Positions 6,299-15,305 of a stretch of DNA of 64,000 bases are shown here, one piece after another (position 1 is the first letter of the stretch; the number at the start of each line of letters is the position of its first letter). The stretch lies in the IMG/VR virus record IMGVR_UViG_3300027754_005988, positions 32,001-96,000 of that record. One strand, written 5' to 3'. The notes beneath the pieces are model-generated. The model searched no databases and was not told the origin of the DNA. It saw only the letters and a list, made by a program, of their open reading frames with translations. A program made the translations under genes and the position numbers. This stretch comes from a virus.

Positions 6299-6709
6299 AT
6301 GATTATGAAAAAAATTATAATAACATCATCTCAATATAATAAAATATTATTACATGAACAACATGCTCGTTTATCAAATAATATATTAAATGAAAATGTT
6401 AATGAAATACTTATGGGGTTTTCTAAATTAATAAAAATACCACTTACTGGTTTAAATAAAATAAAAAGTGAGTCTGATTTAAAAAATAAAGATGTAATAT
6501 TAAAAATAAAAAATACACTAGAAGATAAAAATAAATTAAAAGATTTAGTTAAATTATTATCTGATAAAAGTGGAAATGAAGAAATTAAAATTAAGTTAGC
6601 AAATAATGCTCAAACTATAATTGATGATTATAATTATTTAGCAACAAAAAATGGTTTAAAAGATATGTTAGGGTTAGATGCTTTAACTAATCTTAAGGAA
6701 TTAGTTTAA
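6299..6709 (+). CDS. Hypothetical protein with MKKIIIT..QY N-terminus (possible internal head protein)
   Basis: The ORF-track start at 6269 lies inside the terminator; the real start is more likely ATG 6299 or 6305. N-terminus resembles ORF 11388. Confidence 0.7.
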   Translation: MIMKKIIITSSQYNKILLHEQHARLSNNILNENVNEILMGFSKLIKIPLTGLNKIKSESDLKNKDVILKIKNTLEDKNKLKDLVKLLSDKSGNEEIKIKLANNAQTIIDDYNYLATKNGLKDMLGLDALTNLKELV

Positions 6710-8243
6710 TATATTTTATAGTACCGCAATCATATATTCTATATATACCCCTATCTAACATAATCTGATGTTCAGTTTTAGAATGGTCATATCCTTCTTT
6801 AACTAAAACATCTTTTCTATACTTATACCTATTTTCTCTTTTTATGTTATTTATATAAAAGTAATTAGGTTTGGTATTGTTATGTTTTTTAAATCCTAAT
6901 TTTTCATATAAATTACCTAGACTCCATCGTCTATCAGCATAACTAATTATTTCTTTAGGTTTATAGTCTTTAATAAAATTTTTTAATAATTTATCAGCAC
7001 CACCAATAACAGTAGTATTTAGTTTATTACAAAATCTAATTAACTCATACGAATCTTCTTTATGGTTTAACCCTAATGATTTCCTTAGACCACCAAACGT
7101 CATTAAACTAACCAATTCAGAACCATAATATAATCCTAATCTAATTGTTGAATTAACATTTCCTTGAATATGATTATTATCTAAAAATAATTTTGAATTT
7201 TTAGAAGATACTTCTTTAATTACACACTTTCTACCAAATATTTTATTTGAAGTTACACCTAAAATATTGCTTAATCTTGATTTAACAATATCTTTTTTAG
7301 TTAACCATTCATCTTCAAAAATGTGTATTAGTTGTATTCCTAATTTTTCACATTCATTTGTTTTATTTAAATGATATTTATCATCTTTATAAATTTCAGA
7401 ATGCCAATATAATCCATTATACTCAATAGCTAAATTATGTGATGGTAGGTATATATCTAATTCTTTACCATTAAGTATTTTTCTATTACTTTTAATAGTT
7501 ATAGTATTTAATGAATTAATAAACTCAATTATTTCATTTTCTGGATAACTTATATTGTTTTTTATATCAACACAGGTTTTACAAATTGGTATTTCATTTT
7601 TAAACCTATAGTTTAATTCATTATTGTTAAATTCACTTAATTCATTACATGTATTACATTTAACAGTATAAAATCCATTCTCATTATTTAATATATTTAT
7701 TTTAACATATTTTTCTTTATTTTCAATTCTAATTTTGCTAGATTTAGATTGTGCTGGATATTCGGTATTATATTTTTTAATTGAACCTTCTTTAAAGATA
7801 GCTTTAACTCTATCCAATTTCATAACATTATCAACACCATACCTAGCTATATTGGTTTTTATAGTCTTTAATTTAACTTCTTCCGAAAAAAATGGTGTAG
7901 CACCACCATATATGGTTTTATTTGTTTCTTTTACTTTTTCAATATGGTTATTATTTTTATTGGTACATTTTAATGAACAATATTTACCATAACCATTATT
8001 TAATGATTTACCAAATTTCAATAACTTATCACATTCTAAACATTTAGGTTGTATTGTTTCATTATTTATAAAAAACCATATTTTTTCTTTAAATGAATAG
8101 TTAGATAATGAATATTTTTCAGAATATTTAATAACTTCATTGAATATATCTATAAATTTATTTTTTAATTTATCTTCACAGGTTTTCCAACCAGATTTAT
8201 TATTATTTAAAAAAAAATCTTTATATTTTATATTATTTTCCAT
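6693..8243 (-). CDS. Free-standing homing-endonuclease-like protein: Zn-ribbon/repeat N-terminus + PD-(D/E)xK (Vsr/DUF559-like) nuclease + GNAT/Mom-like C-terminus
   Basis: CxxC pairs and KTNxxxYG repeats; ELDIYLPSHNLAIEYNGLYWHS; FLDNNHIQG...YELIRFC...IISYADRRWSLGNLYEKLGF. Antisense insertion between sheath and tube genes. Confidence 0.8.
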   Translation of the reverse strand: MENNIKYKDFFLNNNKSGWKTCEDKLKNKFIDIFNEVIKYSEKYSLSNYSFKEKIWFFINNETIQPKCLECDKLLKFGKSLNNGYGKYCSLKCTNKNNNHIEKVKETNKTIYGGATPFFSEEVKLKTIKTNIARYGVDNVMKLDRVKAIFKEGSIKKYNTEYPAQSKSSKIRIENKEKYVKINILNNENGFYTVKCNTCNELSEFNNNELNYRFKNEIPICKTCVDIKNNISYPENEIIEFINSLNTITIKSNRKILNGKELDIYLPSHNLAIEYNGLYWHSEIYKDDKYHLNKTNECEKLGIQLIHIFEDEWLTKKDIVKSRLSNILGVTSNKIFGRKCVIKEVSSKNSKLFLDNNHIQGNVNSTIRLGLYYGSELVSLMTFGGLRKSLGLNHKEDSYELIRFCNKLNTTVIGGADKLLKNFIKDYKPKEIISYADRRWSLGNLYEKLGFKKHNNTKPNYFYINNIKRENRYKYRKDVLVKEGYDHSKTEHQIMLDRGIYRIYDCGTIKYIKLIP

Positions 8244-8323: not shown

Positions 8324-8812
8324 ATGGCTGACTTATTAATGAAAATGCCCTTACCATACGAACCTAAGAAAAAGAATCGTTGGTTACTTACATTCCCAGC
8401 TGACCTTGGTATCCAACAGTGGTGGTTATCATCAGCATCAAGACCTTCAATTTCACAACAAGAGGTTGAGATTCCGTTCTTAAATACATCTACATGGGTT
8501 ATTGGTAGATTTACATGGGAATCAATTGATGTAACATTCCGTGACCCAATTGGTCCTTCTGCTGCACAAGCAATTATGGAATGGGTACGTTTACATTCAG
8601 AATCAATTACAGGTCGTCAAGGATACGCAGCTGGTTACAAAAGACCTGTTGACCTTGAAATGCTTGACCCGACTGGTGTTGTTATTGAGAAATGGTTATT
8701 AGATGGAACTATGTTAACAAACGTATCATTTGGTGATTTATCAATGGATGATGATGGTATTGCTGAGATTACCGCAACATTAAGATTTGACAGAGCTATA
8801 TTGCTGTTTTAA
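8324..8812 (+). CDS. Tail tube protein (T4 gp19-like)
   Basis: YEPKKKNRW, ASRPSI, GRFTWESIDVTFRDPI, IMEWV, MLDPTGVVIEKW, ITATLRFD; 162 aa, downstream of sheath. Confidence 0.92.
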   Translation: MADLLMKMPLPYEPKKKNRWLLTFPADLGIQQWWLSSASRPSISQQEVEIPFLNTSTWVIGRFTWESIDVTFRDPIGPSAAQAIMEWVRLHSESITGRQGYAAGYKRPVDLEMLDPTGVVIEKWLLDGTMLTNVSFGDLSMDDDGIAEITATLRFDRAILLF

Positions 8813-8861: not shown

Positions 8862-9620
8862 ATGAGAAGATTTGATAAAAAACACAATTTAGAAAAAGCT
8901 AATTTATTGGCTGAAGCAAGATATCTAGAATCTAAAGGATTGCTTAACGAATATGATAGGGGTCAATTTGATTCTAAGTATTATAATTTAGATAAAGAAA
9001 GAAAAGAAAAAATAATTGATTATTCTAAAGAAAGACAAATAAGAGATGGTTTAAAATTTAAAGGTTTAAATCAAAAACATGAATATTTTTTTTTAAAGGA
9101 TGATATTAACATATATTATTTTAAAGATAATGAAATAGAACCTCTAATAACAACAATGAAAAATTTAGGTGATTTTTTTAAAGAGTTTAACCCAAATCAT
9201 GGTGGCTCTAATTTATCATATCTTATTCAGAAATATAAAATAAGACATGAATTTGTTGATTTTGATAAAAAAAACTTAAAAGATTCTATAAAATTAACTG
9301 TTAGAGGTAGTATAAACAATGTATTAGCACCGTCTTTGTTCAATGATGGTGAATTAAGCTTTGATATTGATATGGTTGGTAATTTAAAAAAACAAAGTGA
9401 TAAATATACACCACCGTTTATTCTTGATATACCTACAATTCAAGTAAGGAGTATGTCTGGTGGTGACAGAGGTGTTATCATCCCTATCGATGCAAAGAAT
9501 GCTATTATGTTTAATAATATTATTAAAGACAAAATACTTGAAAGATACGGTAAATTTGATTTTAATAATCCTATTTTTATTAAAGATGTTAAAATCGATA
9601 GAAACGCAACAGTAAAATAG
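8862..9620 (+). CDS. Hypothetical protein (possible internal head protein)
   Basis: 252-aa ORF with N-terminal MRRFDKKHNLEKANLLAEARYLESKGLLNE. Confidence 0.7.
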   Translation: MRRFDKKHNLEKANLLAEARYLESKGLLNEYDRGQFDSKYYNLDKERKEKIIDYSKERQIRDGLKFKGLNQKHEYFFLKDDINIYYFKDNEIEPLITTMKNLGDFFKEFNPNHGGSNLSYLIQKYKIRHEFVDFDKKNLKDSIKLTVRGSINNVLAPSLFNDGELSFDIDMVGNLKKQSDKYTPPFILDIPTIQVRSMSGGDRGVIIPIDAKNAIMFNNIIKDKILERYGKFDFNNPIFIKDVKIDRNATVK

Positions 9621-9641: not shown

Positions 9642-9676
9642 AACCATCCATAATTAATACTTATGGGTGGTTTTTT
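9642..9676 (+). terminator. Intrinsic terminator
   Basis: AACCATCCATAA-ttaatac-TTATGGGTGGTT followed by T-tract (one G-U pair). Confidence 0.8.
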
Positions 9677-9762: not shown

Positions 9763-11070
9763 ATGGATAAAAAACCACAGGTATTCCCTACCCAAGAACA
9801 AATGAATGCACGTAAGTCTGAAGAAGCTAAAATAGCTGCTTTTGAAGCTGAAAAAGCACAAGCAACTAACGAGATATATCATTCAGCAGCCACACAACAA
9901 GATACACCAAAAGTACATTATGATGCTGTAGAAGCAATGAGGCTTAGAACAGAAAAACAATTATCTGATTTAAAAAATAATGGTACTGTAACTAACCCTT
10001 ATTTATTTGATAATAATGATATTAACTCAATAAATAATGAACAAATGAGACTTCGTGATGAACAGTTACGAAAGAATCAAGAAAACACTATTAAGTATCA
10101 ACAAATGGCTAACGAATCAGCGGCTAGAAACAATAATAATCAGAATACCAATTCTGGGTTTTATCAACCTAATACACAACAAAATATGAATCAAAATACA
10201 CAAAGTGTATCTAATAATTATAATGATAATTATATACCACCAACACCTCCATCAGTTCCTCCAACTAATAATTTTGAGAACTATGGTCAAAACCCTTCAA
10301 ATATAAACCCTTATATTGCTGAAATTAGTCAACCTAACTATAACGCACCATTTGATGTTATTCCATTACCATCACAAGGTAAATTATATCCTAGTAAAAA
10401 AGCTAACATCAAAATTGCTTATATGACAACAGCTGATGAAAATATTCTTAGTAGCCCTAATTTATTAGCAAGTGGTGAATTTTTAGAGATATTGATAAAT
10501 AGAAAGATACTAGAACCAAGTTTAAGATATAAAGATTTAACAGTTGGTGATAGAAATGCTATTATGATTTGGTTAAGAGCTACTGGTTATGGTGAAATGT
10601 ATCCAGTTACCATTTATGATGAAAATAGTAACCCTTTTGATACTGATATTAATTTACAAGACCTTAAAACAAAAAATCTTGGCGCTGAACCAGATGCTGA
10701 AGGATTGTTTGATTTTACACTTCCTTTATCCAAATCTAAAATTAAATTTAAATTTTTAACATGTGGTGATGTGGATAATATTGAAAGAATGGTTGAGGCT
10801 GATAAAGCAAATAACATTCCAGTTGATAGTTCTAGTACTTATACTTTAGAAAGAATGATTGTTGAAGTTAACGGTGATAGAAATAGACAAGTTATTAAAG
10901 ACTTTGCTAACTCAATTAGAGTTGGTGATGGAAAAGCAATAAGTGATTACTCATCACAAATAGAAAGTGGTGTTGATTTAAATATAACCGTTAAGACTCC
11001 TGGAGGTGGGTCTATTGCCACCTTTCTTCCGCTTAACATGCGATTTTTTTGGCCTAACATCAAATTATAA
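9763..11070 (+). CDS. Tail/baseplate hub assembly chaperone (T4 gp26-like) with Q/N-rich N-terminal extension
   Basis: DVIPLPSQGKLY, AYMTTADENIL, DLTVGDRNAIMIWLRATGYG, FTLPLSKSKIKFKFLT, RFFWP; located between tube and tape measure. Confidence 0.8.
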   Translation: MDKKPQVFPTQEQMNARKSEEAKIAAFEAEKAQATNEIYHSAATQQDTPKVHYDAVEAMRLRTEKQLSDLKNNGTVTNPYLFDNNDINSINNEQMRLRDEQLRKNQENTIKYQQMANESAARNNNNQNTNSGFYQPNTQQNMNQNTQSVSNNYNDNYIPPTPPSVPPTNNFENYGQNPSNINPYIAEISQPNYNAPFDVIPLPSQGKLYPSKKANIKIAYMTTADENILSSPNLLASGEFLEILINRKILEPSLRYKDLTVGDRNAIMIWLRATGYGEMYPVTIYDENSNPFDTDINLQDLKTKNLGAEPDAEGLFDFTLPLSKSKIKFKFLTCGDVDNIERMVEADKANNIPVDSSSTYTLERMIVEVNGDRNRQVIKDFANSIRVGDGKAISDYSSQIESGVDLNITVKTPGGGSIATFLPLNMRFFWPNIKL

Positions 11071-11329
11071 AATACCATTGTTGGAAGAAATCTGGATTTG
11101 TACTCAACATATGAAAAATATTAGTTATTCAGATGTTTTAGCAATGCCTACTTATGAACGAAGATATTTTTTAGGTTTATTAACTAAAGATTATAAACAA
11201 AAAGAAGAACAATTAGAAGAGATGAAAACAAAACAAACTACTTCTAATTCAAAAGGTAAACGAACAACAAGTGTTTCTGGTGACCAATTAAAAAATAAAA
11301 TGAAATCTGGTGAGATACCATTAAAATAA
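11006..11329 (+). CDS. gp51-like / GT-like chaperone C-terminal module, probably expressed as a frameshift fusion with the upstream ORF
   Basis: LLEEIWICTQHMKNISYSDVLAMPTYERRYFLGLL motif. The only upstream start is a GTG inside the previous gene; the first ATG falls within the motif region. Confidence 0.7.
   Translation: MGLLPPFFRLTCDFFGLTSNYKIPLLEEIWICTQHMKNISYSDVLAMPTYERRYFLGLLTKDYKQKEEQLEEMKTKQTTSNSKGKRTTSVSGDQLKNKMKSGEIPLK
11044..11050 (+). other. Putative programmed frameshift site (T7 run, CGA TTT TTT TGG)
   Basis: Frame 0 reads R-F-F-W-P; the overlapping frame reads D-F-F-G-L-T-S into the downstream ORF. Confidence 0.6.
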
Positions 11330-11330
11330 T

Positions 11331-11356
11331 AAAATCCCCAATTATTGGGGATTTTT
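11331..11356. terminator. Intrinsic terminator
   Basis: AAAATCCCCAAT-T-ATTGGGGATTTTT directly after the stop at 11329. Confidence 0.85.
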
Positions 11357-11387: not shown

Positions 11388-12857
11388 ATGAAAAAAATAA
11401 TTTTAACAGAAAAACAATATAAAGCTTTAGAACAATATATTGAAGAGGCTAGACAAGAAAAGGCCCCTATATCTTTAAAACCGCTTTTTGATAAGAACCC
11501 TACAGCCAAATTTTTTAGTGTTGTACAAAGGTTAAAAACTGGTGGTGATGCTGATTACTATTTTGAACTTGTTGAACAAAATGGGTTTAAAATGGTTAAA
11601 GATATAAATAAAATGGGTAAAACAAAAAATTGTTTAGGTGATTTACATTTAGATACAATGTTATATGGTAACCAAGTTAAAATAGTTTTTAATCAATGTG
11701 GTGAAAGAACAATCAATAATGTTATCGCTGTTAATTTATATGCCACTATTGAAGACCTTAAAAGTGATAAAATATTAGATAAAAAAGAATTAGAACATGA
11801 ATTTGATACCACAGTTGGTGGATTAGCAAATATATATTATGACCGTTTAAAAGCAACACCTATTGATAAACACATTTATATTGATAGTAAAAACAAATGG
11901 GATGGTATTGTTACTAGAAAAACAGCAAATGAGATAGAAATAGAGCTGTTTAAGCATGGTATACCAATTAATGAGGCTGATGATTCAGAAATGTCTTGGA
12001 ACGTTAAACCAACGCAAGATAAAGAGGTAGAGAATAAACCAAAACCTAAACAAAAATCTATTATATTAACAATAGATTTATCAAGCAATCCATTTTATGA
12101 AGAAGATGGTCAATTAATGTTTAAAGGTGTTAGTTATGATAGAGCTACAGATAAAAAAACTGATTTTGTAATACCAGTTAAAAAATTTGATACCAATGTT
12201 GAACCACCAAAACAAAAAGAAGAACCAAAAGCTGATGGTGAAGAATTACCAGTTGGTGAAGAACCAGAAGAAGAAGAAAAAAAATCTGAGGAAGAAATAG
12301 CTGCTGATTTAAAAAGAACTTATGATTTAATTTTAAAAGACCCATTATTACAAAAAGCTTTTTATGATAAAAAGAGCCAAGGTGTTTTGAATTATTTTAT
12401 GGCTGCTCTTAAGGGTAAAAAAGCATATGGTAAAGGAATAATTCATACTTTAGATTTAATAAATGATTACAGTAGAAATAAAGTACAAAAAGATTTAAAC
12501 GCTGAATTTATAATGGGTAAAAAAGTATTTTTTGAACCTTATCAAAAACCTATTAGCATTACATATGATTCAAAATCATTTCAATTAGACACAGGTAAAA
12601 AATATTATGGTGTTGTTAGAAGATTTAAAACTGGTGATGAGCATTACATTATAGATAATAAAGCTGAAAAGTTTAAAGTAATTGTTAAATCTAAAACAAA
12701 TATTGAAGATGTTTATAAATGCAATGTAATAAAATATACTACAAAATCTGATGGTAAATTATCGAAAGAATATCCTAAAGAAGATGTGTTTATTAAATTA
12801 TATAAAGGAAATGAAAGTGATGGTTATAAACCAATAGAAAATAAAACAAAAAAATAA
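11388..12857 (+). CDS. Hypothetical protein with MKKIILTEKQY N-terminus (possible internal head protein)
   Basis: 489 aa, acidic EEPEEEE linker, N-terminus similar to ORF 6299. Confidence 0.75.
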   Translation: MKKIILTEKQYKALEQYIEEARQEKAPISLKPLFDKNPTAKFFSVVQRLKTGGDADYYFELVEQNGFKMVKDINKMGKTKNCLGDLHLDTMLYGNQVKIVFNQCGERTINNVIAVNLYATIEDLKSDKILDKKELEHEFDTTVGGLANIYYDRLKATPIDKHIYIDSKNKWDGIVTRKTANEIEIELFKHGIPINEADDSEMSWNVKPTQDKEVENKPKPKQKSIILTIDLSSNPFYEEDGQLMFKGVSYDRATDKKTDFVIPVKKFDTNVEPPKQKEEPKADGEELPVGEEPEEEEKKSEEEIAADLKRTYDLILKDPLLQKAFYDKKSQGVLNYFMAALKGKKAYGKGIIHTLDLINDYSRNKVQKDLNAEFIMGKKVFFEPYQKPISITYDSKSFQLDTGKKYYGVVRRFKTGDEHYIIDNKAEKFKVIVKSKTNIEDVYKCNVIKYTTKSDGKLSKEYPKEDVFIKLYKGNESDGYKPIENKTKK

Positions 12858-12866
12858 TTTAACTAT

Positions 12867-15305
12867 ATGGCATTGACACCAGATGAAATAGAAAAAGTCC
12901 TTAATTTATTAAAAAAGCAAGCTGAACAACAACAGGAAATCAACAGTGGGTTAGATGGTTATATAAAAGCATTAAAAACTGCTAATGATATAAATGAAAC
13001 CATTGCTCGTAATAGAAAGATTCAGGCAGAGTTACAACAAAATATCAATAAACTTCATGGCCAAGCTAAAATTGATGAACAAGATAAGTTAAATGCACTT
13101 AGGGAACAAACTCTTGAACTAGTTAGGCAAGGAAAAGTATTAAGAGATAATCTTAAAGACGCTAACAAATATAAGATGACATTTGGCGCTATGGGCGCTA
13201 GTATTGCTAAGGGATTTGGTTCATTACCTGGTCTTTTTCAAAATTCTTTTGGTAAATTAAAAGGTTATGGATTGTTTGAAATGGATAAAGCCATTAAACA
13301 ATCTGCCTTGGATATGGGATTGGTTGGTGCAAGAGCGAAGGGTTTATCCACATCTATTCGTGAATCAGCATTAACGACTACTAAATGGGGTATGGGTGTT
13401 AAAGAACTATCTAAATTACAATCATCATATAGTGAAGAATTAGGTAGAACAGTAATGATGGGTAATTCTGGTTTAGAAGCAATATCCGCAATGGGTGTTG
13501 CAACTGGATTAGGCGCTGAAGGTGCTGGTAAGTTAACAGCTGAAATGAATAATCAGGGCTTATCTGCTGAGCGTACAGCTAACTTCATGAAGCAAACCAT
13601 GAATGACTCCACTAAGATGGGTCTTAACACGTCTAAGGTCGTTAAAAACATTCAGAACAACATGAAGTTGTTGAATAAGTATGGTTTTAAGGGTGGTATT
13701 AAAGGATTAGCTAAAATGGCTCAAACAACATCTAAATTAGGTGTTGATATGAACTTTGTTGCTGGAATGGCTGAAAAGTTGTTTGATATTGAAGGTGCTG
13801 TTGATATGTCTGCACAATTGCAAGTTATGGGTGGCGAATGGGCTAAATTAGCTGACCCATTTAAGCTGATGTACATGGCTCGTAATGACATGGAAGGGTT
13901 AACTGAAGCAATGGGTCATGCAGCTGCTTCATCGGCTCATTTTAACTCTGAAACTAAAGAATTTGAAATATCAGCTTTAGAGATGCATAAGTTACGTAAA
14001 ATAGCTGAACAAACAGGTGTTTCATATGATGACTTGGCAAAAGCTGGTAAAAACGCTGCTAAATTTAGTAAAATAGAACAACAAATTGGTTTTAGTTTTG
14101 GTGGTGGTAAAGAAGGTAAAGAAATTAAAGACTTCTTAACTAGTACCGCTGAAATGGATGAAAAAGGAAAAGCATTTATCATTGATATGAAAGGTGATAA
14201 ACAATATCTTGATAAGGTTAGTAAAGATTTGATTAAAAATCAAATGATTGCAAAACAAGAATTGGCAGATAGAGCAAAAGCTTCTATTACTTTCGATGAA
14301 AAAGTAACCAATTTGATTAACATGATTAAGGTTACTATGATGCCTATTGTTGATGGTATTGATTCAGTGCTTGGACCATTGGTTGAACAATTTCATGATG
14401 AAAAATTCACTGGTGAATTAAAAGAGTTAGGTGTATCCATTGGCGAATTTGTTAAATTTGGTGCAGAGATGGTTAAGGGTGTTGGTGAGTTTGTATTAGC
14501 TATAGGTCCTAAGAGCGCATTAGCTTTATTTTTAACAGGTAAAGCTATTGGTTGGTTATTTGAAAAAGCTAGTTGGATTGCTAATGGATTGTTATTGTCT
14601 CAAGGATTTTTAGCTGGAACAAAATTAGGAGGGTTCATGCAAGGAGGTATGGGGGCTATGGCTAGTACTGCTGGAAAAACACTTGGCGCTGCTGGTGGAG
14701 CAATAACTGGTTTGGGAGTTGGTACGGCAATTGGTGGTGGTGGTAAAGGTGCTATGATTGGTTCTGCTATAGGTACTGGTGTTGGTGCTTTTGGTCAACT
14801 TATAGGTATACCTATGCCGATAGGAATGGCTTTAGGTGGTATGGCTGGTGGTTACCTTGGTGGTATGGCTGATGATTATAATAAACCTGCTAATGATGCT
14901 ATATTTAATTCACCTGTAAATGATGCTAAATTTAGTTTAAAACCTAATTTAGGTGGTGCTTTTTCAAAAGATAGAGCTTTAATGCAAGGTGGTAAGATAA
15001 CACCAATTGATAATAAAGATGATTTATTGGCAATGAAACCAGGTGGAGGTATTATGGACTTTTTAAGTAACATAGTTAGTACCAAAGATAATAATAAAGA
15101 AAACACAAATAAAACTAAAAACATTAAAATTGAATTTAGTCCGTTGATATTTAAATTTGAAGACCTGGTTGTTAAAACAAGTGATGGTCAAAGTACTATA
15201 ATTGCAAAAGAATTGTTAAATAATGAACATTTTAAGAGAGATATTGCAAGAACTGTCCATGTTCAAACACAAAAAGCAATTAATCAAGGAATTTTAAAAG
15301 GTTGA
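12867..15305 (+). CDS. Tape measure protein
   Basis: 812 aa, alpha-helical and Ala/Gly/Met-rich, with hydrophobic Gly-rich repeats near the C-terminus; downstream of tube and chaperone genes. Confidence 0.8.
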   Translation: MALTPDEIEKVLNLLKKQAEQQQEINSGLDGYIKALKTANDINETIARNRKIQAELQQNINKLHGQAKIDEQDKLNALREQTLELVRQGKVLRDNLKDANKYKMTFGAMGASIAKGFGSLPGLFQNSFGKLKGYGLFEMDKAIKQSALDMGLVGARAKGLSTSIRESALTTTKWGMGVKELSKLQSSYSEELGRTVMMGNSGLEAISAMGVATGLGAEGAGKLTAEMNNQGLSAERTANFMKQTMNDSTKMGLNTSKVVKNIQNNMKLLNKYGFKGGIKGLAKMAQTTSKLGVDMNFVAGMAEKLFDIEGAVDMSAQLQVMGGEWAKLADPFKLMYMARNDMEGLTEAMGHAAASSAHFNSETKEFEISALEMHKLRKIAEQTGVSYDDLAKAGKNAAKFSKIEQQIGFSFGGGKEGKEIKDFLTSTAEMDEKGKAFIIDMKGDKQYLDKVSKDLIKNQMIAKQELADRAKASITFDEKVTNLINMIKVTMMPIVDGIDSVLGPLVEQFHDEKFTGELKELGVSIGEFVKFGAEMVKGVGEFVLAIGPKSALALFLTGKAIGWLFEKASWIANGLLLSQGFLAGTKLGGFMQGGMGAMASTAGKTLGAAGGAITGLGVGTAIGGGGKGAMIGSAIGTGVGAFGQLIGIPMPIGMALGGMAGGYLGGMADDYNKPANDAIFNSPVNDAKFSLKPNLGGAFSKDRALMQGGKITPIDNKDDLLAMKPGGGIMDFLSNIVSTKDNNKENTNKTKNIKIEFSPLIFKFEDLVVKTSDGQSTIIAKELLNNEHFKRDIARTVHVQTQKAINQGILKG

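Follow-up and report, generated by a model that had tools for sequence, protein, structure and literature searches.

Two overlapping open reading frames in the tail chaperone locus of an uncultured giant phage probably constitute one tail assembly chaperone gene that is decoded in two ways by a +1 ribosomal slip, as comparison of the locus with the sequences of its relatives suggests. The window that we analysed is a stretch of 64,000 nucleotides. The first frame, ORF1, is flanked by the tail tube gene on one side and the probable tape measure gene on the other, and the second, ORF2, overlaps the end of ORF1 in the +1 frame. The features of the locus are as follows.

8324 to 8812, plus strand: tail tube gene, 162 aa (phrog_4542 tail tube protein, E 6.6e-27).
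9642 to 9672, plus strand: terminator-like hairpin, 12-pair stem followed by a T tract.
9763 to 11070, plus strand: ORF1 from the ORF list, 435 aa, encoding the tail assembly chaperone in its short form.
11002 to 11030, plus strand: possible upstream stimulator, the Shine-Dalgarno (SD)-like GGAGGTGGG (11002-11010) paired with ACCTTTCTTCC (11020-11030).
11044 to 11055, plus strand: proposed shift site TTT TTT TGG CCT, including the T7 run (11044-11050).
11051 to 11329, plus strand: putative long-form extension in the +1 frame, 92 codons and a stop, resembling the C-terminal end of gp51 and without a start of its own.
11068 to 11070, plus strand: TAA stop of the short form, six codons past the second TTT (11047-11049), the assumed P-site codon.
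11331 to 11355, no strand assigned: palindromic terminator hairpin directly 3' of the +1-frame stop, 11-pair stem, with a T tract on the plus strand.
12867 to 15305, plus strand: probable tape measure protein, 812 aa.

The hairpin at 9642 to 9672 closes the upstream unit, and the chaperone gene therefore forms a transcription unit of its own. The gene order of the cultured relatives is sheath, tube, gp26-like gene and tape measure, and the annotated tape measure gene of relatives comes straight after the chaperone gene. Two further ORFs (252 aa and 489 aa) are interposed in the window, whereas the relatives have tube, chaperone and tape measure without them. The 812-aa protein has a weak match (E 8e-6) to the large post-chaperone gene of Microcystis phage Mel-JY01. 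When the junction and ORF2 were searched with BLASTN and TBLASTN in 50,697 phage records, there was no match, and the distant cultured relatives were reached only through the gp26-like domain.

The initial annotation had proposed a programmed +1 or -2 frameshift at the end of ORF1, and we reproduced its description of the junction. ORF1 ends in CGA TTT TTT TGG CCT AAC ATC AAA TTA TAA (R-F-F-W-P-N-I-K-L and stop), with the T7 run at the position given above. The overlapping frame is shifted by +1 relative to ORF1, reads D-F-F-G-L-T-S and continues for 92 codons from GGC (11051) to TAA (11327-11329), with the terminator right after it. At the shift site, frame 0 encodes F-F-W-P and frame +1 encodes F-F-G-L, and the predicted fusion lengths of 521 aa (429 + 92) for a +1 shift and 522 aa for a -2 shift are correct. 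The -1 frame is closed a few codons past the site and the extension is in the +1 frame, so this is not a -1 shift on an X_XXY_YYZ heptamer, a feature that characterises the usual mechanism and not the family of proteins. The first ATG of the +1 frame is at 11111, within the conserved region, as had been noted. The GTG at 11006, which had been called the only upstream start, is also present, but the frame has further in-frame TTG codons at 11015, 11078 and 11081; none of these codons is kept in relatives. An SD-like GGAGG stands 8 nt before the TTG at 11015.

In the reading that we favour, the majority of ribosomes would translate TTT TTT TGG CCT through to TAA and produce the 435-aa short form. 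In a minority, peptidyl-tRNA(Phe) on the UUU before U (11044-11050) would slip forward by one base and re-pair with the overlapping UUU. The shifted ribosomes would then read GGC CTA ACA and so on for 92 more codons, giving a long form of about 521 aa (...NMRFF-GLTSNYK...) with the expected junction peptide ...NMRFFGLTSNYK. The C-terminal extension of the long form would be the counterpart of the domain that ends T4 gp51. If the two forms act as lambda gpG and gpGT do, each would use the part they have in common to coat the tape measure protein, and the extension would bring in the tail tube protein. The sequences show the layout of the locus, its conservation, the missing start, the change of the selected frame and the homology; from these we infer that ribosomes do the shifting, at which codon and how efficiently they do so, and what each form does.

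ORF1 is a tail assembly chaperone of the T4 gp26 type (PF12322). Its N-terminal 190 aa or so are a Q/N/P-rich low-complexity extension, and its C-terminal part, a core of 245 aa, is the gp26-like domain. The PF12322 (T4_baseplate) profile matches aa 209-414 with 26.4 bits (cut-off 24.5, E 6.7e-6), and phrog_150 matches ORF1 with E 7e-8 and the read-through with E 1.4e-11, which bears out the gp26-like assignment made earlier. An AlphaFold2 model of the unshifted domain alone had a pLDDT of 89.7. Foldseek with this model and a sequence-profile search of the PDB gave no match. With VIA-align, where Z values below 8 are middling, the four best matches all fell on model residues 3-96, roughly the first 90 of the gp26-like region: 3fgx_B (an uncharacterised protein, Z 6.1), the tail assembly chaperones 3klu_A (YqbN, Z 5.5) and 2ob9_B (HK97, Z 5.2), and 5ir0_B (ORF19 of a Vibrio PICI-like element, Z 4.4). 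The next match had Z 3.9.

In order to assess the junction across relatives, we aligned it in three clades. Among close relatives, TTTTTTTGGCCT is found in 80 of 80, the site TTT TTT TGG CCT is identical in all, and the +1 frame is open for 89-98 codons at every locus not ended by a contig edge. The wider set consists of about 160 loci in two distant clades with only about 30% protein identity to the window. Here TTTTTTTGGCCT is present in 91 of 128 unique loci, the remaining ones have TTTCTTTGGCCT, TTTCTATGGCCT, CTTTTTTGGCCT, TTTTTTTACCCT or TTTTTTTTCCCT, and the +1 frame is open over 62-108 codons. Recurrence of the site together with the open +1 frame is far beyond chance. The alignment has FFWP in frame 0, FFGLT in the shifted frame and no conserved start, as the initial annotation had predicted. 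Site variants among the relatives include TTT CTT TGG, TTT CTA TGG and CTT TTT TGG, and every locus examined has a P-site codon able to re-pair in the +1 frame, UUU_U in the window and UUU_Y or CUU_U in general.

These variants also bear on the possibility that the RNA polymerase, rather than the ribosome, slips on the T7 run and drops one U, so that a U6 fraction of the mRNA encodes the fusion. Slippage of this kind would fit a T7 run that is invariant among the close relatives (80 of 80) and present in most of the distant ones, and rU:dA hybrids slip readily (reviewed in PMC5009743). However, it is impossible at the loci with TTTCTTT or TTTCTAT (31 of 188 unique) and in phages HSE3 and GXN1 (TTC TTT C), and yet all of these retain the +1 layout. 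The record also has runs of T7 to T9 at 22 other places in long open frames. Seven residues are short for bacterial polymerases, the known cases having nine or more. The TTT CTT T and TTT CTA T variants therefore rule out transcriptional slippage as a general mechanism and point to a +1 slip of the peptidyl-tRNA on UUU_Y or CUU_U; slippage is an unlikely source of the fusion. Of the earlier proposal that tRNA-Phe slips on the T7 run, the forward shift thus stands, with site and frame conserved, whereas the C-bearing variants show that the T7 run is not essential.

A -2 ribosomal frameshift, with tRNA(Phe) moving back two bases on T7, would arrive in the same frame and yield a 522-aa fusion with an extra Phe (...RFFFGLT..., expected junction peptide ...NMRFFFGLTSNYK). 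The tail chaperone gene of phage Mu uses a -2 shift. Every re-pairing on U7 would be perfect, and -2 shifts are known on U-rich heptamers (PMC3458567). The TTT CTT TGG and TTT CTA TGG variants, however, re-pair poorly at -2, and RNAalifold found no conserved downstream RNA structure in any clade, thus none of the kind that drives backward shifts. What TTT CTT TGG, TTT CTA TGG and CTT TTT TGG have in common is a slip codon of the form UUU_Y or CUU_U. This makes a -2 shift less likely than a +1 shift, and we consider it very unlikely.

ORF2 could instead be an independent small gene that starts at GTG 11006, TTG 11015 or ATG 11111, or by re-initiation past the ORF1 stop. Upstream GTG or TTG codons exist in the window and in the majority of relatives, one of those in the window is preceded by the GGAGG described above, and GenBank has small ORFs annotated here for Mel-JY01, immuto and HSE3. 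These annotated starts, however, vary between phages and cut into conserved sequence. Before the site, about a third of the unique loci in each clade (21/60, 16/62 and 26/66) lack any +1-frame ATG, GTG or TTG, the first +1-frame ATG is anywhere from codon 10 to codon 84, and 27 loci have no start up to codon +20, yet the +1 peptide is conserved from the site onward (FFGLT...). Between the three clades, HHalign aligned these peptides from their first residue on (E 1.6e-11, 5e-19 and 2e-42). Upstream of the site it is the third position of frame 0, not of frame +1, that is most variable (entropy 1.07 versus 0.58 and 0.42), whereas downstream it is that of the +1 frame (1.27 versus 0.85 and 0.62), and the switch from frame 0 to frame +1 falls exactly at the site. 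An independent gene is thus highly improbable.

At TGG CCT, each frame constrains the other: because frame 0 keeps its Pro, the GGC codon of the +1 frame cannot vary at its third base, and because the +1 frame keeps its Leu, the same holds for the third base of CCT in frame 0. Constraint in both frames fits two functional products. Conservation also extends to the short tail of frame 0 (WP[ND]...stop). The probability that the overlap is a homopolymer error of sequencing or assembly, or a decaying gene, and that the true gene is a single uninterrupted ORF is negligible: homopolymer runs are error-prone and the record is a metagenome assembly, but the same run length and frame relation recur in over 200 independent assemblies and cultured phage genomes, the frame relation holds also at loci without a homopolymer, the frame-0 tail is kept, and no in-frame fused homologue of ORF2 was found among longer proteins, which is weak evidence.

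We then compared the +1 extension with T4 gp51. The phrog_150 match of the unshifted product covers profile positions 19-215 (35.0 bits), and that of the +1 read-through covers 19-281 of 282 (45.4 bits) in one colinear stretch, a gain of 10 bits. T4 gp51 spans positions 13-280 of the same profile. It consists of a gp26-like domain and a C-terminal domain (PF12322 and PF28602), and the PF12322 border at its residue 201 (..VFK) corresponds in position to the shift site. The ORF2 profile matched the gp51 family at the expected place, with the +1 peptide aligned to gp51 residues 207-251, although this match is weak (P = 6e-4, HHalign probability 25-28%). Against the single T4 gp51 the profile also fell at the right place, with an E of 0.02-0.06 that is not significant. 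The claim that the +1 peptide is gp51-like is thus supported by a weak but colinear alignment with the C-terminal end of the family. The read-through had no significant BLASTP match to T4 gp51, no credible family in Pfam or PHROGs was found with ORF2 alone, and in Flavobacterium phage immuto the read-through gave no extension of the phrog_150 match.

Tail chaperone frameshifting is a textbook case of recoding. By its sequence features the locus is very probably a forward-slipping version of this device of long-tailed phages, and not a new kind of system. A frameshift conserved among tail chaperone genes is known from systems such as lambda gpG/gpGT and P2 gpE/E+E' (Levin 1993; Xu, Hendrix and Duda 2004; PMC5009743). 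As in those systems, the gene lies between the tube and tape measure genes, the shift site is a few codons ahead of the short-form stop, the extension has no start of its own, the two predicted products have a common N-terminal part, and the shared part may have a chaperone-type fold (the middling 2ob9_B and 3klu_A matches above). Unlike in lambda and P2, the direction is +1 and not -1, there is no X_XXY_YYZ heptamer, and the chaperone is much larger on account of its core and low-complexity extension. At the sequence level, no resemblance to lambda gpG could be detected.

T4 gp26 (208 aa) and gp51 (249 aa) are published tail assembly chaperones (Vladimirov, Gautam and Davidson 2022, Virology 566:9, as cited in PMC10885494 and PMC12846349). 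The link of gp26/gp51 to lambda G/GT made in the initial annotation therefore holds, but it is not novel, being the topic of that work according to the two citing papers, whose accounts of what it says on poly-T sites in T4-like chaperone genes differ. ORF1 belongs to PF12322/phrog_150, the family of both T4 proteins, and its shift site coincides with the gp51 domain border. In contrast, T4 has two divergently transcribed genes and no frameshift, whereas here we propose one gene with a +1 shift; similarity to the T4 proteins is also very low and not significant by BLASTP. T4 has long been quoted as the sole exception to tail chaperone frameshifting (PMC5009743). The locus and its over 200 relatives indicate, from sequence, that the T4-type chaperone family normally recodes, and in the uncommon forward direction.

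Forward shifts of this kind have precedents. Schwartz and Curran reportedly described, in 1997, +1 slips at UUU before a pyrimidine in E. coli. Fu and Parker 1994, listed in PMC5009743, is a further reference for such slips, and UUU and CUU before U were among the most +1-prone P-site codons at the RF2 site (Curran 1993, according to PMC10885494). As in prfB (RF2), where the site is CUU_UGA_C, the P-site codon is UUU or CUU before U or C and the peptidyl-tRNA would re-pair one base forward; the CUU_UGG of the immuto clade is one base away from the RF2 site. Unlike in RF2, the A site has a sense codon (UGG, UAC or UUC) in place of a stop, there is no Shine-Dalgarno 3 nt upstream, the SD-like motif being 25-38 nt off, and the purpose would be two structural products and not autoregulation. 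Other forward shifts are those of the archaeal myovirus HSTV-2 chaperone (likely +1) and of tail genes of Listeria phages PSA, A118 and A500 (PMC5009743). These likewise yield a C-terminally extended tail-related protein, although the PSA shift occurs on a proline codon by a stop codon or pseudoknot and the proteins are unrelated.

Finally, we looked for elements that could stimulate the slip. The A site has UGG in the window, whereas some relatives have UAC or UUC there; none of these is a slow or a stop codon, so the usual stimulator of a +1 shift is missing. The 127-kb record has up to three other long ORFs with a T7 or T8 run in the same phase, and thus the T run alone cannot be the whole signal. 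We considered a four-base-reading tRNA of the phage, and ARAGORN found no tRNA genes in the 127-kb record, which is about 36% of the genome. A pairing of TTTCTTC (11023-11029) with GAAGAAA (11084-11090) was rejected, as RNAalifold gave it only -2.6 kcal/mol and its arms flank the ribosome. Ribosome collision at the ORF1 stop was also rejected, since the distance from site to stop varies (3-7 codons past TGG) and is too short for stacking. The element at 11002 to 11030 has invariant synonymous sites in 57 unique relatives, and its GGAG is position-fixed in all three clades. A hairpin is predicted there in every sequence of the clade of the window (-6 to -15.5 kcal/mol, mean z -1.7), with its 3' edge 14 nt before the T run; no true covariation or compensatory changes were found in it, and it is unsupported in the other two clades. 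A role of this SD-like motif or hairpin, which ends 14 nt ahead of the T run, in stimulating the slip is speculative.

A broader reading, which we put forward only tentatively, is that the gp26/gp51-type chaperone of a very large and old myovirus group is made by a programmed +1 shift at UUU_Y that is ancestral, needs neither a stop nor a rare codon in the A site and is driven by a new upstream signal (the SD-like motif or hairpin about 14 nt before the site), and that the two genes of T4 are derived. The group would include freshwater giant phages and phages of Flavobacterium, Microcystis, Bacillus, Listeria, Streptococcus and Rhodothermus. If true, few natural +1 sites in bacteria would be as widespread as this one, and its stimulator would be of an undescribed type. 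The proposed recoding site is very simple, a UUU before a pyrimidine with no obvious pause signal, and as a deeply conserved natural +1 site with built-in sequence variants it is suited to a search for the stimulator. Annotations of several GenBank phages (Mel-JY01, immuto, LIS04, SP-15, HSE3, RM378 and GXN1) show a small ORF or a gap behind a "baseplate hub" gene, and these should be joined to that gene.

The source record (127 kb, completeness ~36% by CheckV, G+C of 29%), of which the window is G000:C1:32001-96000, has close relatives on contigs up to 362 kb, and the source is therefore taken to be an uncultured giant myovirus. The genes discussed below are arranged as follows.

Features around the chaperone gene of the window.
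8324-8812: tail tube gene, upstream of ORF1 (phrog_4542, E 6.6e-27)
9642-9672: terminator-like hairpin, upstream flank of ORF1
9763..11070, + strand: ORF1, 435 aa, gp26-like
11006..11329, + strand: ORF2, the overlapping ORF
11331-11355: palindromic hairpin with a T tract, downstream flank of ORF2
Downstream of a 489-aa ORF: probable tape measure protein, 812 aa, which weakly matches the large gene 3' of the chaperone in Microcystis phage Mel-JY01

The sequence elements described in the initial annotation are all present in the window. ORF1 ends with CGA TTT TTT TGG CCT AAC ATC AAA TTA TAA, where the T7 run occupies 11044-11050. ORF2 lies in the +1 frame relative to ORF1 (peptide ..D-F-F-G-L-T-S-N-Y-K..), and this frame has 92 codons, beginning with GGC (11051) and closed by TAA (11327-11329), with its first ATG at 11111. 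A GTG had been given as the only upstream start of this frame; in-frame TTGs at positions 11015, 11078 and 11081 had been missed, and none of these starts is conserved. As the sequence reads, the extension would be reachable solely by a +1 or -2 frame change. Recoding of some kind at this gene is very probable, and we consider it likely that a programmed +1 ribosomal frameshift gives rise to a tail assembly chaperone of 435 aa and a predicted long form of ~521 aa. The earlier interpretation as a chaperone frameshift was essentially right, and the finding is real.

Residues 209-414 of ORF1 match PF12322 (T4_baseplate), to which T4 gp26 belongs, with 26.4 bits against a curated cut-off of 24.5, and also match phrog_150 ("baseplate hub"). 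T4 gp51 matches both PF12322 (gp51 residues 1-201) and phrog_150, of which positions 13-280 of 282 span nearly the whole of gp51; database records of gp51 homologues have a second domain, PF28602, after PF12322. The AlphaFold2 model of the C-terminal 242 residues of ORF1 (51 sequences) was confident, with pLDDT 89.7 and pTM 0.84. Foldseek gave no match to this model in the PDB. In an exhaustive VIA-align search the top four hits were small proteins, all aligned to model residues 3-96: 3fgx_B (Z 6.1), YqbN of a B. subtilis prophage (3klu_A, Z 5.5), the HK97 tail assembly chaperone (2ob9_B, Z 5.2) and 5ir0_B (Z 4.4), the next row having Z 3.9. The scores are middling, and the agreement of the top structure hits together with the gene position supports a predicted role of ORF1 as tail assembly chaperone. 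The protein also carries an N-terminal extension of ~190 aa (9763-10330), a coiled-coil-like start followed by a Q/N/P-rich low-complexity stretch, that is absent from the chaperones of Flavobacterium phage immuto (246 aa) and Mel-JY01 (290 aa) and from T4 gp26 (208 aa). Frame 0 is open for 432-446 codons ahead of the site in the relatives listed, which suggests that the window's clade retains this extension.

Alignment of the junction across relatives, which the initial annotation had proposed as a check, showed that the site and the shifted-frame peptide are kept with no conserved start. All 80 loci of the close relatives (67-80% identity) have TTTTTTTGGCCT followed by A or G, and each locus not truncated by a contig end has 89-98 open codons in the +1 frame. 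The +1 peptide is kept from the site onward (FFGLTSxYKxPLLEEIxICTQ...MPTYERRFF...VSGDxLK), its first ATG varies in position between codons 10 and 84, and 21/60 unique close relatives have no ATG, GTG or TTG after the preceding +1-frame stop and before the site. In the window's clade, variability is highest at the third codon position, counted in frame 0 before the site and in frame +1 after it. At TGG CCT both frames are constrained, in keeping with two functional products: the third base of GGC (frame +1) is set by the conserved Pro of frame 0, and that of CCT (frame 0) by the conserved Leu read in frame +1. The two distant clades around immuto and Mel-JY01, ~30% identical to the window, have the same layout in all fetched loci with a complete ORF1 (157/160). 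Here 62-108 codons are open in frame +1, frame -1 usually closes within 12 codons, and a possible upstream start is absent from 16/62 and 26/66 unique loci. Across the three clades, the +1 peptides show homology starting at residue 1 (HHalign E 1.6e-11, 5e-19 and 2e-42).

In more distant cultured phages the layout persists with a different site sequence, namely GAR TTT TTT in LIS04 and SP-15, TTC TTT CGT CCC in HSE3 and GXN1, TTT TTT TGG AAT in RM378, and TTT CTA TTC CCT in LR756508; none of these six is annotated with a frameshift. The GenBank records of Mel-JY01, immuto, LIS04, HSE3 and RM378 have a small hypothetical ORF or a gap at the place of the +1 extension (L004 3740-3976, L005 3833-3943, L006 3741-3972, L250 2246-2416 and L251 2201-2377 in the fetched loci), and these are probably mis-annotations of the predicted long form.

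All loci share either UUU with a pyrimidine after it or CUU with U after it (UUU_Y or CUU_U), and a peptidyl-tRNA on such a codon could re-pair one base forward. A slip at either Phe codon of the window would give ...RFF-GLT...; in loci with TTT CTA TGG, slipping on the first UUU would yield F-Y-G-L-T, a conservative change. The A site holds a sense codon: UGG, replaced in a few loci by UAC or UUC. At the RF2 site, UUU and CUU ranked among the codons most prone to shift (Curran 1993, per the summary in PMC10885494). The initial annotation had left a +1 and a -2 slip side by side; +1 fits all loci, whereas a -2 shift on the T7 run fits the T7 loci and does not fit the TTT CTT T and TTT CTA T variants. 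Transcriptional slippage on the T run is disfavoured as a general mechanism, as the site is TTT CTT T or TTT CTA T rather than a homopolymer in 31/188 unique loci and TTC TTT C in HSE3 and GXN1, and T7-T9 runs occur at 22 other places in the record's long open frames.

With regard to possible stimulators of the predicted +1 shift, no conserved downstream RNA structure was found in the three clades. Upstream, GGAGGTGGG (11002-11010) and ACC TTT CTT CC (11020-11030) have conserved synonymous sites in the window's clade and are predicted to form a hairpin in every sequence of it. The 3' edge of this hairpin is 14 nt before the T run, about where the mRNA would exit a ribosome with its P site on the first UUU. 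GGAG or GAGG (11002-11030 in the window; same offsets in L008-L247) is the most position-fixed motif in 850 nt in each clade (-42, -30, and -32 or -28 from the site), and its codon phase and encoded amino acids differ between clades, which suggests an RNA-level signal. Pairing of this SD-like motif with a pyrimidine tract resembling the 16S rRNA 3' end is seen only in the window's clade. The hairpin has no support outside the window's clade and no compensatory change was found in either element; both may be stimulators and are leads only. ARAGORN found no tRNA genes in the 127-kb record, itself ~36% complete; their absence from 127 kb is unusual for a giant phage.

The second ORF had also been called gp51-like. 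Reading the window with a +1 step (TGGC=G, giving ...RFFGLT...) raises the phrog_150 score from 35.0 to 45.4 bits (E 1.4e-11), and the match then covers profile positions 19-281 of 282, in a single stretch, instead of 19-215. Read-through lengthens the Mel-JY01 match modestly (positions 7-233 to 7-274) and does not lengthen that of immuto, which stops early. Against a 31-member gp51 alignment the +1-peptide profile places ORF2 residues 14-53 on gp51 residues 207-251, the extreme C-end (P = 6e-4), and the read-through alignment spans the junction, FFGLT versus iFkLL (P = 3e-3); the single T4 gp51 sequence gives the same placement, which is not significant. A gp51-like nature of the extension is therefore weakly supported.

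In T4, 26 and 51 are two distinct genes with divergent transcription, whereas the window has one gene with a predicted +1 shift. Of two papers citing Vladimirov et al. 2022, PMC10885494 states that T4-likes do not frameshift but have one short gene and another that is longer and fused, and PMC12846349 refers to Vladimirov et al. for slippery poly-T sequences in TAC-N genes of T4-like phages. Since Vladimirov et al. 2022 treats it, per these citing papers, the conceptual link of gp26/gp51 to lambda G/GT is already published. PMC5009743, a review from 2016, lists +1 shifts for tail genes of Listeria phages and a likely +1 variant of the chaperone shift for the archaeal myovirus HSTV-2. The function and family are known, and what is uncommon is the shift direction and the site.

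Cultured relatives have the gene order sheath, tube, gp26-like "baseplate hub", short ORF or unannotated gap, and tape measure. Their chaperone and tape measure genes are adjacent, without the 489-aa ORF (11388-12857, no Pfam or PHROG match) that lies between the chaperone and probable tape measure genes of the window. Between the tail tube and chaperone genes there is a 252-aa ORF (8862-9620) with no family match and its own 3' terminator (9642-9672). Just upstream of the tail tube gene, on the - strand, lies a homing-endonuclease-like gene of 516 aa (6693-8243; phrog_3339, E 1e-128), whose Pfam hits, Mom-like and REase_MTES_1575, are both weak.
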